Shown one piece after another: positions 2,634 to 9,869 of a stretch of DNA of 20,000 nucleotides. The first letter of the stretch is position 1. Every line of letters starts with the position of its first letter. The stretch comes from an uncultured virus (IMG/VR IMGVR_UViG_2558309035_000001). Lineage: Duplodnaviria; Heunggongvirae; Uroviricota; Caudoviricetes. The translations under genes and the position numbers were made by a program. The DNA is taken from IMG/VR virus record IMGVR_UViG_2558309035_000001. One strand, written 5' to 3'. Under the pieces are notes generated by a model. The model searched no databases, had not been told where the DNA came from, and was given only the letters and a program-made list of their open reading frames with translations.

Positions 2634-3095
2634 CTATTTTTTAGAACGGTTAATTAATAAGTACAAGCTAAAACATACCACTACCACCAAACCGCCCCAC
2701 AAATACGGATTCGGTTTTTTCGTCTCCACTTCAACAGCTTTCTTTTTGGATTTTAATTTGCTTTCAATCTTTTCTGCTTTAGCAGAAACAGACCGGTCAG
2801 TGCCCGTAGCCGAACTGTCTTTTTTTGAACTGTCAAATATTATTTTACTGTTGGTGAACTTGGTCGTGTTACCGGCACTGTCCGTAAAGGTGCTTTCCTT
2901 TGTTGGATCCACCGGTTCTAGCGTGGTCATGTTATACGCCTTGGTGTACCGTACATTCGAGGTAATGTCATTTTTAGTTTCAACACGAGTTTCTTTTTTT
3001 TCCTCCAGTTCAAGTTTTTCTAAATCCATCGCACGTTTACGGGTACCACAGCTCGTGCAGATGATAAAAACTAAAAACAGGATCCCGATTCTCAT
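2634..3095 (-). CDS. Putative unimolecular spanin (N-terminal lipoprotein, C-terminal TM helix)
   Basis: Lipoprotein signal MRIGILFLVFIICTS-C; C-terminal TM YLWGGLVVVVCFSLYLLI followed by NRSKK; close downstream of endolysin. Confidence 0.75.
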   Translation of the reverse strand: MRIGILFLVFIICTSCGTRKRAMDLEKLELEEKKETRVETKNDITSNVRYTKAYNMTTLEPVDPTKESTFTDSAGNTTKFTNSKIIFDSSKKDSSATGTDRSVSAKAEKIESKLKSKKKAVEVETKKPNPYLWGGLVVVVCFSLYLLINRSKK

Positions 3096-3236: not shown

Positions 3237-3359
3237 TTAACATGGTATATTCCTTAACAAATGTTCCTCACAGATAAAATCACCTGGTCGTATTTCGTAA
3301 GCTCCTTTAGTACCACAGATACCGCAATATTTTTGATGATAGAATAGAATGTCGTTCAT
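3237..3359 (-). CDS. Small putative zinc-binding protein (40 aa), not in ORF track
   Basis: MNDILFYHQKYCGICGTKGAYEIRPGDFICEEHLLRNIPC; CxxC...CxxH; start overlaps the endolysin stop (TAATG). Confidence 0.6.
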   Translation of the reverse strand: MNDILFYHQKYCGICGTKGAYEIRPGDFICEEHLLRNIPC

Positions 3360-3796
3360 TAAGCTTCTCTTTTTATGTGTGTTTGCCTTACCCATTTACT
3401 GTTGTAGACATAAGCATCATTCTGAGCGTTTTTATAATCTCCATGGATAAAACCATTATAGATTGCTAAACGTGTGTACCTAGTAACAGCAATTAAGGCT
3501 TCAAGTAATATTCCTTGATTTTCTTTAAAGTTATCGCAAGTAATATCACAAGCACCCAAAAAATTATAGGTATGTTCTGAATAACCGCTACGACCTTTTG
3601 ATTTTTCCCACTCAACACTTCTGTAGCTACTTTTAAGTGATACATAAATTTTAATATCACATTTGTACTTTTCTTTTATCCATTGCTCCACAAGTTTTAG
3701 TGGTGCCATATGAGCAACATAAGCAACGGTCTCCACTTTAGAAGGAAGACCATCGCCTTTAATGTCATAGCTGTTTATATTATGTATGCTGTTCAT
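3359..3796 (-). CDS. Peptidase M15A-like Zn peptidase, putative endolysin
   Basis: Motifs SSYRS, SEH(x6)D (SEHTYNFLGACD) and FIHGD; next to spanin. Confidence 0.8.
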   Translation of the reverse strand: MNSIHNINSYDIKGDGLPSKVETVAYVAHMAPLKLVEQWIKEKYKCDIKIYVSLKSSYRSVEWEKSKGRSGYSEHTYNFLGACDITCDNFKENQGILLEALIAVTRYTRLAIYNGFIHGDYKNAQNDAYVYNSKWVRQTHIKREA

Positions 3797-5580: not shown

Positions 5581-5907
5581 TTATACTTCACTTGTTACCG
5601 ATCGGTACAGTTGGTTTAAGAATACCGAACCAAGTCCTGTTAAGAACATGACAATAAAATTGCCGTCGCTCGCCAACGTACCTAAGTAGGCAGATGCCGT
5701 GGCTATCAAAGGCACCACAATCAACGTGGTCGTGCCGGTAACGAACGGGGCTATCTTTTTTACGAGCCACGTTACGCCCAATGTAATAAGTGGCATAAGC
5801 CATGTTAATACCGATGTGGCATTATCGAATTCAATGCTTTCTTCTTGCGCCAATAACGCCATAGGTGCCAATAGCACCACTACTAATAATTTTAAACTGT
5901 TTTTCAT
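5581..5907 (-). CDS. Small membrane protein, holin candidate (signal-like N-terminus plus about 3 TM)
   Basis: Hydrophobic segments VLTWLMPLITLGVTWLV, TTLIVVPLIATASAYL and FIVMFLTGLGSVFL; lysis-region context. Confidence 0.6.
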   Translation of the reverse strand: MKNSLKLLVVVLLAPMALLAQEESIEFDNATSVLTWLMPLITLGVTWLVKKIAPFVTGTTTLIVVPLIATASAYLGTLASDGNFIVMFLTGLGSVFLNQLYRSVTSEV

Positions 5908-5918
5908 GATACTTCTAT

Positions 5919-6608
5919 TTAATTAATAATTATCGTGTCTTGCACCGCATTTGCACTATCGGTTACAATCTCTATGACTTCCATTTTCCCTTGAGCATCA
6001 ATAACCTTTACCAACAACTCTAAAGGAGCACTAAAACCGAACATTCTGTTCTTATAATATTTGCTACGCCATTTATGGCTATACAATAGCGTTTTACTGC
6101 TGTCTGGCCACATCCACGGTTCTACGTCATCTTCAGGTTCTCCGCTGCTTAATACCTTACGGTCCATCGCCTCAAAAACCACAGCCACTTCATAGGGCAC
6201 TAGATCAAAATTGGTTTTACCTAAACTCTTCACTCTGTCGAGTCCGAATACTTCCTCGTACTTTTCGTTCATGCCCGTAATGCGAATACTATCGCCACGT
6301 TGAGTTTTCTCGTACCAGGCAATATCGAGCTCATCCATCTCAATGTTTCTACCGATATTGGCGGTGACCAAAAAAGCATTGGTAACCGCTAGTTGTTCGC
6401 TCTTGGTACGCCACTTATCGCGCTTACCGGTCATTACCCACAACTGTACGGTAGTCGTAGCCAATGGCACCAGAACCAACCAACCTTTATTCTTTTTTAT
6501 GAACGTATGTAGCCTGGTCTTTATAAACCGGCGCTCTTTTGATCGCAACCACCACCTGTATTTGATCCACAGTCTAAGCAGTAGTTTTTTGGGGGAATTC
6601 TCAGGCAT
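5919..6608 (-). CDS. Membrane-anchored standalone PAS-domain protein
   Basis: Basic N-terminus, hydrophobic WLVLVPLATTTVQLWV, then PAS_4-like MNEKYEEVFGLDRVKSLGKTNFDLVPYEVAVVFEAMDRKVLSSGEP. Start moved to ATG 6608 (MPENSP) because a small ORF occupies 6616-6693. Confidence 0.75.
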   Translation of the reverse strand: MPENSPKKLLLRLWIKYRWWLRSKERRFIKTRLHTFIKKNKGWLVLVPLATTTVQLWVMTGKRDKWRTKSEQLAVTNAFLVTANIGRNIEMDELDIAWYEKTQRGDSIRITGMNEKYEEVFGLDRVKSLGKTNFDLVPYEVAVVFEAMDRKVLSSGEPEDDVEPWMWPDSSKTLLYSHKWRSKYYKNRMFGFSAPLELLVKVIDAQGKMEVIEIVTDSANAVQDTIIIN

Positions 6609-6615
6609 GCGCTTA

Positions 6616-6693
6616 TTATGCTTTATCGGCATGATCAGAGAGCAATATTACTATTGCCACCAACACACTAACTATTGTTGTAACCAATATCAT
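6616..6693 (-). CDS. Single-TM micropeptide (25 aa), not in ORF track
   Basis: MILVTTIVSVLVAIVILLSDHADKA; starts 1 nt after the upstream stop and fills the gap. Confidence 0.5.
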   Translation of the reverse strand: MILVTTIVSVLVAIVILLSDHADKA

Positions 6694-6694
6694 C

Positions 6695-7051
6695 TTAATT
6701 CAATTTTTGCAATAACCGTATCAATTTCGCTACAATAAAACCACCACCGAGTCCGCTAATAGCAGCCAAAAAATGATCAATAGGTGTTTGAATATCAACA
6801 GGAATACTAACGAAGTAATCAGCAAAAGGTAGTCCAACCTCTACTATAAATGATAGTACTAGATAACCGCTTAAAATCTGATATAAATAGTTTTTCCAAG
6901 TACCTTTAAAGTAATTATCTACACCGTATAAATTCTTTTGAGTTATACCCGTACCTATAGCCATTATAGTTACAAGTATACCACCAGTACATACCCATAT
7001 CATAGACCAGTCTAATTCCTGATACCAAAACTTTTCGACAATTTCTCCCAT
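6695..7051 (-). CDS. Membrane protein with about 3 TM, holin candidate
   Basis: Three hydrophobic segments and a basic C-terminus (AKLIRLLQKLN). Confidence 0.6.
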   Translation of the reverse strand: MGEIVEKFWYQELDWSMIWVCTGGILVTIMAIGTGITQKNLYGVDNYFKGTWKNYLYQILSGYLVLSFIVEVGLPFADYFVSIPVDIQTPIDHFLAAISGLGGGFIVAKLIRLLQKLN

Positions 7052-7053
7052 AA

Positions 7054-7140
7054 TTATTTACTATTTCTATATTGATACCATAACTTACCCAACACTATAA
7101 AAGCTATATACACTATTACGAATGTTAGATAATTGGTCAT
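7054..7140 (-). CDS. Single-TM micropeptide (28 aa), not in ORF track
   Basis: MTNYLTFVIVYIAFIVLGKLWYQYRNSK; fills the gap with 2-nt spacers on both sides. Confidence 0.55.
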   Translation of the reverse strand: MTNYLTFVIVYIAFIVLGKLWYQYRNSK

Positions 7141-8036: not shown

Positions 8037-9869
8037 TTACAACGCTTTTAAACTAATTTTAATCTGCATTATATCACCTATACTACCAGTGGTATTATTA
8101 GGGTATGCGTCAAGTTGAAAACCTGTAGCTGTACTTTCAAATACATGAGATAACAGAACCCATTCGCTAGAATTAAGATTTAACCATTGAAAACCATCAG
8201 CTCCAACATTTAATTTGATTCTTCCATCATTACCTTGAATCATTCTGTAATAAACATCAACCCTGTAATCTGTACTGTTCAAAATAGTTACACTTGGTCT
8301 TGCACGACCACCACTAGCATTACTTTCTATTTGATATACGTAGCTCCAATCATCAAAACCAGTAACCACCACACTAGATGTAGTTGCGTTAATTGTAGTT
8401 ATTTCACTTGGTGAGGTAGCTGCATTGGTTTCATTAGGTGGAAAAGCTGCTGCACCTATATTCCATAATTCTGGATTACTGTTGTTTTGATTTGTATAAG
8501 GGAAATTTGAACCATTTGAAGCTAAACCACTTGTTTCGATCCAAAAGGTAGTAGCATCTAATTTAATAACGTTTGCAGTTTCATAAGGACTTAGTTCTAT
8601 TTGTGAATCAACATCTAAAGCTGTTTTAAACCCATCTTCATTAAGGGCATAACCTGAAAAGTCATAACCACTTTCTGGTTTTAAAGTAACAGCACCGTTA
8701 CCGCTATTGTTAAAATCTGCCCATGTATTTAATTGTGTGACAGCAGAACCAAAAGTCAACTCACCTACATCCGCTTTGTAATTATTTACCTTTTTTCCAC
8801 TAGATATAAAGTTTGAATTATTTATTGTTATATCACCTGTTGTAAGGTTGTTTCTTACTGATTGTATTGAACTTGCTGAACCTGCTATTTCATCAATAGC
8901 ATCTTGTACGTCCGTTGCTGTTAATCCGCTTGTTGTTGGGTCGTAGGTTACTTCGGATGCGTCATTATTACTAATAGCTGTATCAACATAGAGTTTAGTC
9001 GCTAAATGCAAGTCATGCTCTATAATTCCATCATGAGCAATAAAAGCTCTGTTAATAGATGAACCAGCAGAACTATTCCTAAATGCTAAATCACCTGAAT
9101 AAGTACTAGCTGTTTGCTCTGTAATATCCCATGTTCCAGTATCAGAATTTTTATCTGACAAATTTAATATTCCGACATTCAATACATCTTCCCCACCGGC
9201 ATCATTACCTTCTGTTAATACTTCCGGTAATGTTTGATCGTCTGTGCCACCGCCTGAACCTAATGCATCTACATAACCCTTAGTAGCTGCGTCCGTATCG
9301 TTTACAGGTGCAGCTAAGTTTTTAATAGCATTGTTCTGCATATCCAAAGGATCATCAACATCTATCTCTGTTGATAATGCATGCAAGTTTCCTGTATAGA
9401 TATAGCTAGAGAAAATTTGAGAAAATGAAGCTCCTGAACTACCTAAGTCTATTGAGCCACTACTTTGAGGTAAAAGATCACCTGTAAGCCTGCGGCTGCC
9501 ATCTTTTAATAAGTCGTCGTTATTATCAATATCCAAATCGGAGTACAAAGCAGACAACCAAGAGGCCGCCCTGGCATCGGTATGATATTGTGTATGGTCA
9601 TCATCGGTTAAACCAGATAATGCACCATGGTCGGTAACTCCACCGCCAACAACATCCATCAAATCCACAAACTCGGTACCGTTATAATACCAAAGCGATT
9701 TAGTTGTACTATTACCTACCAACAACCCCTCACGCGGATTACCGATACCGTTCAACACCGTCGATGTTTTTGTATCGAGTAGCAGTCCATCTGCAGGACC
9801 AATGACATCTACCTGGGCAATACCGAATGCCGATACCAATAGGGCTATTACTATACTTAACTTTTTCAT
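8037..9869 (-). CDS. Signal-peptide fibre/adhesin-like protein
   Basis: Signal MKKLSIVIALLVSAFGIA-Q; fibre-type motifs WYYNGTEF, DHGALSGLTDDDHTQY, IKNLAAPVNDTDAATKGYVD, LATKLYVD and ATDVQDAIDEI; beta-rich C-terminus. Confidence 0.7.
   Translation of the reverse strand: MKKLSIVIALLVSAFGIAQVDVIGPADGLLLDTKTSTVLNGIGNPREGLLVGNSTTKSLWYYNGTEFVDLMDVVGGGVTDHGALSGLTDDDHTQYHTDARAASWLSALYSDLDIDNNDDLLKDGSRRLTGDLLPQSSGSIDLGSSGASFSQIFSSYIYTGNLHALSTEIDVDDPLDMQNNAIKNLAAPVNDTDAATKGYVDALGSGGGTDDQTLPEVLTEGNDAGGEDVLNVGILNLSDKNSDTGTWDITEQTASTYSGDLAFRNSSAGSSINRAFIAHDGIIEHDLHLATKLYVDTAISNNDASEVTYDPTTSGLTATDVQDAIDEIAGSASSIQSVRNNLTTGDITINNSNFISSGKKVNNYKADVGELTFGSAVTQLNTWADFNNSGNGAVTLKPESGYDFSGYALNEDGFKTALDVDSQIELSPYETANVIKLDATTFWIETSGLASNGSNFPYTNQNNSNPELWNIGAAAFPPNETNAATSPSEITTINATTSSVVVTGFDDWSYVYQIESNASGGRARPSVTILNSTDYRVDVYYRMIQGNDGRIKLNVGADGFQWLNLNSSEWVLLSHVFESTATGFQLDAYPNNTTGSIGDIMQIKISLKAL

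Follow-up and report, generated by a model that had tools for sequence, protein, structure and literature searches.

The locus

The window analysed here is a stretch of 20,000 nucleotides from an uncultured virus of the Caudoviricetes (IMG/VR record IMGVR_UViG_2558309035_000001). On its minus strand lies a gene coding for a protein with a PAS domain, and just ahead of this gene a very short one, coding for a membrane peptide of 25 residues. We find the two as a pair in other phages, within or beside the genes of host lysis, and it is the meaning of this pair that we discuss. An earlier note, made from the sequence of the window alone, had seen in the PAS gene a possible sensor-holin or lysis timer. 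It had missed the open reading frame (ORF) of the membrane peptide, and the recognition of this ORF as a conserved partner of the PAS gene is what is new here. The pair and the parts of the PAS protein are laid out as follows.

5919..6632, minus strand: PAS-family protein of 237 residues (stop codon 5919-5921), recognised from its ORF, its relatives, PHROG matches and an AlphaFold2 (AF2) model
6483..6632, minus strand: basic helical N-terminal region, residues 1-50, with 17 K/R and 2 D/E; AF2 helices 14-37 and 40-47
6426..6482, minus strand: weakly hydrophobic helix, a marginal membrane segment, residues 51-69, WLVLVPLATTTVQLWVMTG; best Kyte-Doolittle 19-mer (KD19) 1.35
6333..6425, minus strand: stalk, residues 70-100, the remainder of the long helix 49-95 that enters the PAS domain (AF2 secondary structure)
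5991..6332, minus strand: PAS core and C-terminal helix 204-214, residues 101-214 (AF2, Foldseek, VIA-align)
5922..5990, minus strand: low-confidence tail, residues 215-237 (alignment; predicted local distance difference test, pLDDT, 42-74)
6616..6693, minus strand: ORF of the 25-residue single-helix membrane peptide, MILVTTIVSVLVAIVILLSDHADKA, which overlaps the start at 6632 and ends 8 nt before the start at 6608

The PAS gene is not a chance ORF. Its relatives are found at E 7e-91 and below, and the protein matches phrog_31932 (E 1.4e-20) and phrog_10199 (E 1.6e-4). A second in-frame ATG, at 6608, would give a form of 229 residues, which is the one recorded by gene callers (P0001) and used by the earlier note. 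The two ATGs (6608 and 6632) are eight codons apart, and the longer form gains K, K, R and H. This arrangement recalls the dual-start genes that code for a holin and its antiholin; the closest relative, P0002, does not have it.

A profile search of the whole library with the family retrieved 766 proteins at E<=1e-3. Among the 150 matches listed, 39 have at most 248 residues and a single matched stretch, while the other 111, of 367-3709 residues, have several, and are multi-PAS sensors. A scan of viral contigs with alignment A1 returned only the three known Cellulophaga phages, and the same scan with alignments A4 and A5, or with P0026 and P0040, found no relative. The scan of genome contigs gave one match, the PAS domain of a Helicobacteraceae sensor. 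That of metagenomes gave 14 loci and no short family member: wherever the ORF was complete enough, the match was to the PAS domain of a large sensor.

Conservation within the family is distributed along the chain. Q63 is invariant within the hydrophobic helix (6-sequence alignment), N122 and G138 are invariant in a 38-sequence alignment, and K109, D157, K187 and G199 are nearly so. The tail carries a motif, MEVIEIV.D...NAVQDTI (L/MEVIEI..D...NA.QDTI), which is retained by a subset of the relatives, even by P0013 with its 29% overall identity, and which the alignment does not show in the homologues from Cellulophaga phages. We note this tail as a candidate docking peptide.

The PAS gene in lysis cassettes

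Members of the family were placed by tblastn and by profile comparison, and the survey of their contexts covers the window and six external lineages.

phi10:1/phi19:1 (Assiduviridae): gp099, after three annotated small membrane proteins (phi10:1); endolysin 0.75 kb downstream
Nekkels (Assiduviridae): gp58, after two annotated small membrane proteins; endolysin 1.46 kb downstream
phiSM group: gp11, in the order pectate lyase, gp10, gp11, endolysin gp12 (which gp11 overlaps), membrane protein, lipoprotein
phi18:3 group (Pachyviridae): gp090, in the order gp088, gp089, gp090, five-helix gp091, endolysin gp092; 0.57 kb to the endolysin
Ingeline (Duneviridae): gp36, in the order gp35, gp36, gp37, DUF5675 protein gp38
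Chryseobacterium jumbo phage MA9V-1: gp193, in the order GH108 endolysin gp191 (0.73 kb), lipoprotein, gp193, membrane protein, lipoprotein with a C-terminal helix

Small membrane proteins adjoin the family gene in all six external lineages, and a recognisable endolysin lies at most 1.5 kb away in five of them. This context supports the link with lysis that the earlier note had drawn from the window. The PAS gene holds a conserved position in lysis cassettes, where the neighbours' identity as holins is itself a prediction. The membership of phiSM gp11 in the family, for example, is given by profile comparison (hhalign probability 97.8%, E 7.5e-13), and directly before it stands gp10, a member of phrog_15401 and a homologue of the protein of 118 residues that precedes the pair in the window. 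The endolysins belong to several types (GH108, 'lysozyme' and L-Ala-D-Glu peptidase, with an M15-like candidate in the window), which argues that the PAS gene tracks the cassette, not one particular enzyme. The syntenic temperate phage laban6-1 lacks a PAS gene, although the corresponding place in its genome is occupied by an annotated holin and an endolysin, so that we must consider the PAS module as accessory, or optional. In the window, the genes that would make up the rest of the cassette are the following.

6695..7051, minus strand: upstream neighbour, a protein of 118 residues with three hydrophobic helices (phrog_15401), an acidic N-terminal tail and a basic C-terminal tail
5581..5907, minus strand: downstream neighbour, a membrane protein of 108 residues with a signal-like N-terminus and further hydrophobic helices, the second holin-like protein
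3359..3796, minus strand: candidate endolysin of 145 residues with weak similarity to M15/LAS peptidases (Peptidase_M15_3 E 0.017, below the cut-off; phrog_894 'endolysin' E 1.7e-5)
2634..3095, minus strand: lipoprotein-like protein of 153 residues with a C-terminal membrane helix, an architecture like that of a unimolecular spanin

The protein of 118 residues is the best holin candidate, class-I-like by its tail charges and its helices. Its family, phrog_15401, is labelled 'unknown function', and keeps WY..LDWSMIWVC, TWKNY and SGLGGG invariant in seven sequences that are 44-65% identical, a conservation that is unusually strong for a small phage membrane protein. The downstream neighbour has no Pfam or PHROG family. 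The earlier note had described the PAS gene as flanked by two holin-like genes; this holds for their size and architecture, not for their assignment, as neither has a Pfam family and no holin family is matched. The candidate endolysin occupies the position of the endolysin in the syntenic laban6-1. A search of PDB sequences with it gave nothing relevant, and comparison with Ingeline gp38 by BLASTP showed no similarity.

A predicted membrane peptide encoded ahead of the PAS gene

The peptide encoded just before the PAS gene consists of one very hydrophobic helix followed by a short acidic tail. An ORF of this kind, with 22-33 codons and a single predicted helix, precedes the PAS gene in six of the seven contexts (the window and the six external lineages), and in five of the seven, namely the window and four of the external lineages, it abuts or overlaps the start of that gene.

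phiSM: unannotated ORF of 22 residues, separated by 9 nt from gp11
phi10:1 and Nekkels: ORF of 23 residues, overlapping the start of the PAS gene
Ingeline: ORF of 26 residues, its stop overlapping the start of the PAS gene
phi18:3: annotated gp089, 33 residues, ending 109 nt before the annotated start of gp090

In phi18:3 the annotated start of gp090 is preceded by 32 open codons in the same frame, and gp089 ends just ahead of this open stretch. MA9V-1 has no tiny ORF; there, a strong N-terminal helix is fused to the PAS protein instead. The ORFs of 22-26 residues carry no annotation in the deposited records of the phiSM, phi10:1, Nekkels and Ingeline groups.

A control set was assembled from the window and seven loci, with 120 ORFs of at least 100 residues, taken on both strands from the first ATG, spurious ORFs included. 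An abutting tiny hydrophobic ORF was present for 7 of the 120, and five of these seven are PAS-family genes (Fisher p 6.5e-7, or 9e-6 when the two Assiduviridae are merged). The other two belong to the same cassettes: they are the 118-residue gene of the window and Ingeline gp38. It follows from this enrichment that the conserved unit is the pair formed by the peptide gene and the PAS gene. Furthermore, the coupling of the peptide gene in five of six lineages, together with the fused helix of the sixth, suggests an association of the PAS protein with the membrane.

The two remaining matches of the control deserve a word. The 118-residue gene has its own tiny membrane peptide ORF, of 28 residues (7054..7140, minus strand), which abuts its start; in Ingeline, it is the 44-residue gp37 (L023 5012-5146) that abuts gp38. 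As a rule, it seems, these lysis cassettes contain micro-peptide genes.

A PAS fold and a candidate pocket

The PAS domain proposed by the earlier note is supported by every structural comparison made. The AF2 model built on the 38-sequence alignment (A3) reaches a pLDDT of 88.9 (an earlier alignment of 6 sequences had given an unusable model, with a pLDDT of 40.2). It shows helices 14-37 and 40-47, a single long helix 49-95, and then a domain with two strands, helices and three strands (105-112, 115-121, 167-174, 180-189, 196-203), closed by the C-terminal helix 204-214. Foldseek places short LOV proteins, VqmA, NifL and FixL at the top of its PDB matches, with a probability of 1.00 and E values from 4e-8 to about 1e-6, and the exhaustive VIA-align comparison retrieves PAS or LOV domains in 50 of the 50 listed entries, from Z 14.2 (root-mean-square deviation 3.1, 104 aligned) to Z 10.4; among the matches listed is a phage VqmA-DPO complex (7dwm, Z 11.4 over 129 residues). 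The fold predicted by these models is a genuine PAS fold. In sequence, the window protein stays slightly short of the Pfam cut-off for PAS_4 (E 1.1e-4, 22.8 bits, for a cut-off of 23.1). This model is matched at E<=0.01 by 12 of 38 family members, with a best value of 2.1e-8; MA9V-1 gp193 scores 28.8 bits. The other traits that the earlier note had read from the letters are recovered as well, namely a very basic N-terminus (17 K/R versus 2 D/E in the 50 residues preceding the helix), one moderately hydrophobic segment (residues 51-69, with a best Kyte-Doolittle 19-mer of 1.35), and no kinase or output domain: after the helix that closes the PAS domain only 23 residues remain, and PAS_4 and PAS are the sole Pfam matches (E<=0.1).

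What might such a domain sense? Its best Foldseek matches (E 4e-8) are short LOV proteins, PpSB1-LOV and its relatives (PDB 7r4s, 5j3w, 3sw1), which like the PAS protein consist of a PAS core without output domain, flanked by N- and C-terminal helices. Short LOV proteins, by contrast, are soluble, and phage lysis genes do not encode them. The LOV photocycle makes a flavin-cysteine adduct, for which an adduct-forming cysteine motif is needed. The PAS protein, with its 237 residues, does not contain a single cysteine; this makes the adduct impossible, and we rejected its identification as a LOV photoreceptor.

Among solved structures, three entries of VqmA come nearest in a sequence-profile comparison (E 0.0023). 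VqmA and VqmA-Phage (PDB 6ide, 6ugl, 6kju, 7dwm) are quorum-sensing receptors, and VqmA-Phage is a phage protein that couples lysis to a signal; 6ide matches the PAS protein in Foldseek at E 1.3e-6, with 23% identity. The family-conserved N122, Y125, F153 and D157 align with N33, Y36, F67 and D71 of VqmA. In VqmA, F67, F99 and K101 are the main contacts of DPO, and the mutated binding-site positions include Y36, F67 and D71, of which only F67A abolished binding (10.1101/2019.12.19.881847). As family-conserved residues align with positions of this binding site, a conserved pocket is plausible in the PAS protein. The likeness does not extend further. VqmA has a C-terminal helix-turn-helix domain that binds DNA and acts on transcription, whereas Pfam finds no such domain in the PAS protein, which has, unlike VqmA, a basic and hydrophobic N-terminal part and a location within a lysis cassette. 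Any control exerted by the PAS protein would therefore have proteins as its target, at a late stage of infection. A receptor of the VqmA type was rejected: the PAS part is similar, but the chain ends after it and only PAS models are found in Pfam.

Possible attachment to the membrane

The hydrophobic helix of the PAS protein is a borderline case. On a crude sum of insertion energies, the helix of the window protein scores +4.6, against -3.7 to +2.1 for the helices of its neighbours. Its composition, with T, S, G, A and Q, and its marginal hydrophobicity score might fit a signal-anchor-release (SAR) segment, a weakly hydrophobic helix of many small or polar residues that is able to leave the membrane. 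The equivalent helices of P0130, P0060 and P0120 are clearly hydrophobic. In P0040, P0104 and gp193, by contrast, a strong helix aligns upstream, and the columns of the weak helix are a polar coiled coil, in a region where the alignment is unreliable. The N-terminal region might contribute by lying on the membrane surface: its amphipathic moment is 0.42 in the window protein, which is within one standard deviation of shuffled sequences, and 0.55-0.77 in relatives, values that weakly support amphipathic anchoring.

The odds of a periplasmic and of a cytoplasmic PAS domain are about even. Most family members have basic N-termini, and P0060 and P0120 have, at the same position, a fairly hydrophobic helix with 7-8 K/R before it and no excess after it; for most members the positive-inside rule favours an N-in orientation with the PAS domain outside. 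The window helix, for its part, is flanked by 5 K/R on each side (15-residue flanks), and in MA9V-1 gp193 the strong N-terminal helix comes after an uncharged tail of six residues and is directly followed by KK, a charge pattern that suggests N-out/C-in. These equal flanks, the KK of gp193 and a PAS domain like those of cytoplasmic sensors, which in sensor kinases follows the second membrane helix, would speak for a cytoplasmic location.

Possible roles of the pair

To our knowledge, control of lysis timing beyond the intrinsic clock of the holin is described in detail only for lysis inhibition of the T4 type and for a few other cases. The explanation that we prefer for the present locus, with a probability of about 0.45, is that the PAS gene and the peptide gene, which would be translated just before it, together make up an accessory module within the lysis cassette; as judged from sequence, this module would be a sensor that regulates the triggering of the holin in the way of an antiholin, not a former of holes. 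A dimer of the PAS protein would be tethered to the inner membrane, beside the holin, by the peptide together with its own basic and weakly hydrophobic N-terminus; the holin would most likely be the three-helix protein of 118 residues. The state of the PAS pocket, responding to a ligand or to a redox cue, would then alter the contact that the long helix or the conserved C-terminal tail makes with the holin, and this would delay or advance hole formation, making the PAS protein a signal-dependent antiholin or a holin partner. A more specific version, which we find rather unlikely, would see in the micro-peptide and the PAS protein with its VqmA-like pocket a 'lysis sensor' of flavobacterial phages, reading a small molecule or the redox or energy state of the infected cell and gating the holin directly at the protein level. 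That this sensor should amount to a signal-dependent lysis clock, distinct both from T4-type lysis inhibition and from the transcriptional quorum sensing of VqmA-Phage, is a doubtful proposition to the same degree.

A number of observations weigh against the preferred explanation. Both PHROG families matched by the PAS protein are labelled 'unknown function', and no neighbour of the PAS gene is assigned to a holin family in the Pfam and PHROG scans. The endolysin assignment of the window is weak, with its Peptidase_M15_3 value of E 0.017, and the 108-residue gene and an esterase gene of 571 codons separate this candidate from the PAS gene, at 2.1 kb. Attachment to the membrane is not assured because the helix is marginal: the insertion sum exceeds +2 in 35 of 38 family members (median +5.8), with only 3 of 38 at or below 0. 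As to the pocket, the conserved K187 meets the ligand-bonding K101 of VqmA only with a shift of two residues. Finally, the survey of contexts leaves out those of the 39 short metagenomic relatives, and all the lineages that it covers are phages of Flavobacteriia with a related module order, so that synteny may partly reflect inheritance, not selection.

The obvious point of comparison is the holin T of phage T4, which the earlier note had taken as its model when proposing a possible sensor-holin. In this reading the PAS protein would itself form the holes, with its N-terminus in the cytoplasm and a periplasmic PAS domain that receives an inhibitory signal. According to PMC12162936, T starts with an amphipathic helix on the cytoplasmic side, crosses the membrane once, and continues with a bridge helix into a globular domain whose function is regulatory only; RI binds this globular domain (PMC11413866). 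The word 'GAF', which the earlier note had applied to the domain of T, was not found in a search of PMC12162936 and PMC11413866. The architectural parallel itself was well seen: in the AF2 model the N-terminal helix, the hydrophobic helix, the long helix and the globular domain follow one another in the order of the amphipathic, membrane and bridge helices and the globular domain of T (PMC12162936), the length is comparable (218 residues for T, 229-237 for the PAS protein), the t gene also comes after tail-fibre genes, as does the PAS gene with the lysis genes of the window, and the basic N-terminus is compatible with an N-in orientation. Yet there is no sequence relation between T and the PAS family (hhalign probability 0.2%), Pfam shows no holin family (E<=0.1), and the helix is much weaker (KD19 1.35, where T has 2.62; insertion sum +4.6, where T has -1.4). 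The PAS protein differs from T, moreover, in that its globular domain is a canonical PAS domain and that a separate micro-peptide gene is coupled to it. Every cassette with a PAS gene has small multi-helix proteins, among which that of 118 residues has the tail charges of a class I holin, and the related laban6-1, which has no PAS gene, relies on an ordinary holin for lysis. A helix so much weaker than that of T, next to class-I-like holin candidates, makes a holin function unlikely, and we consider the sensor-holin proposal, which these comparisons do not support, improbable. The proposed role of the regulator that we prefer would be like that of the T4 antiholins RI and RIII, non-enzymatic proteins that set the timing of the holin; it would resemble RI if the PAS domain is periplasmic, RIII if it is cytoplasmic. 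RI is described with a cleavable signal peptide (PMC8385771), which the PAS protein does not have.

Two further readings would dissociate the PAS protein from the holin. It could be an accessory gene lodged at the junction between tail-fibre and lysis genes and unrelated to the timing of lysis, for instance a membrane protein related to superinfection, or a kinase-less mimic of the membrane-helix and PAS portion of a sensor kinase of the host, which would disturb the signalling of the latter. Junctions between modules often gather accessory genes, and the PAS gene is indeed optional among related phages. In BLASTP, residues 75-174 are 26% identical to a region of a large sensor histidine kinase that comprises its juxtamembrane coil and its PAS domain, and the kinases of this kind found in metagenomes (loci L008-L020) share with the PAS protein a membrane helix that is followed by some 30 residues of coil and by a PAS domain. 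They also possess a kinase core, a large outer domain and another membrane helix, none of which is present in the PAS protein, and they come from soil metagenomes, not from the host. Kinase mimicry would not account for a translationally coupled membrane peptide, and the PAS gene stays inside the cassettes, with lysis genes on both sides (gp10 and gp12 in phiSM; the endolysin on one side and lipoprotein and membrane genes on the other in MA9V-1). We regard this reading as unlikely. Even less credible, in our opinion, would be a soluble cytoplasmic regulator, in which the weak helix would be a dimer interface and the target late gene expression or some other cytoplasmic process. In its favour are the unfavourable insertion sums of most of the family, the polar coiled coil in the place of the weak helix in P0040, P0104 and gp193 and a PAS domain of cytoplasmic type. 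Against it stand the peptide gene coupled in most lineages and the membrane helix fused in MA9V-1, the clearly hydrophobic helices of P0130, P0060 and P0120, and the lack of a DNA-binding domain in Pfam.

Consequences

If the regulator of holin triggering that we prefer is real, a conserved sensor-domain protein in lysis cassettes would provide a second, chemically addressable route to lysis timing. We found no publication describing a PAS protein in a phage lysis cassette in the literature searched, a coverage from which subscription journals are mostly absent. The idea of a lysis sensor is directly testable because relatives of the pair exist in cultivable phage-host pairs, those of the Cellulophaga baltica phages phiSM, phi10:1 and phi18:3. 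For annotation, the finding flags genes of 22-26 codons that are missing from the records of four published groups of Cellulophaga phages, and it offers a putative role for two PHROG families of unknown function, phrog_31932 and phrog_10199.

Other genes of the window

Every sizeable ORF of the window is on the minus strand. PHROG and Pfam matches show a transcriptional regulator, a primase, a nucleotide phosphatase and an S49 head-maturation protease, as well as tail-fibre-like and carbohydrate-active proteins. The primase shares 41-43% identity with its counterparts in the temperate Flavobacterium phages 6H, 1H, 23T and laban6-1, and the gene order agrees with that of laban6-1 (Duneviridae), which carries an integrase. 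The record of the PAS protein belongs to a contig of 2,306,468 bases, a length that suggests a chromosome. From these observations, the window is most likely a prophage in a member of the Flavobacteriia, a marine-type flavobacterium. The remaining genes of interest around the cassette are these.

8037-9869, minus strand: tail-fibre-like/carbohydrate-active protein, 610 residues
7143-8036, minus strand: polysaccharide lyase, 297 residues
3814-5529, minus strand: SASA esterase with an F5/8 type C domain, 571 residues
3237-3395, minus strand: ORF of 52 residues with a zinc-ribbon-like pattern, CGICG...C..H, just after the candidate endolysin; no family match

The spanin-like architecture of the lipoprotein of 153 residues, with a Cys after an N-terminal hydrophobic stretch and a C-terminal helix, is also that of Ingeline gp39, MA9V-1 gp195 and phiSM gp14. 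Lipoproteins of this kind recur downstream of the endolysin (2634-3095 on the minus strand of the window; L023 5578-6051; L024 5241-5873; L021 2806-3174), with no pairwise sequence similarity between them.

A last observation concerns the three large proteins of 610, 297 and 571 residues, which all begin like exported proteins, with a signal-peptide-like sequence (MKK..hydrophobic..AQ). The pectate lyases and tail fibres of Cellulophaga phages share such signal-like starts (L001 100-4878; L022 2387-4066; L023 1766-4023; L021 5164-8448), and some of the proteins that have them carry a proteomics-based annotation as virion proteins (phi10:1 gp093 and gp094; phi18:3 gp087).

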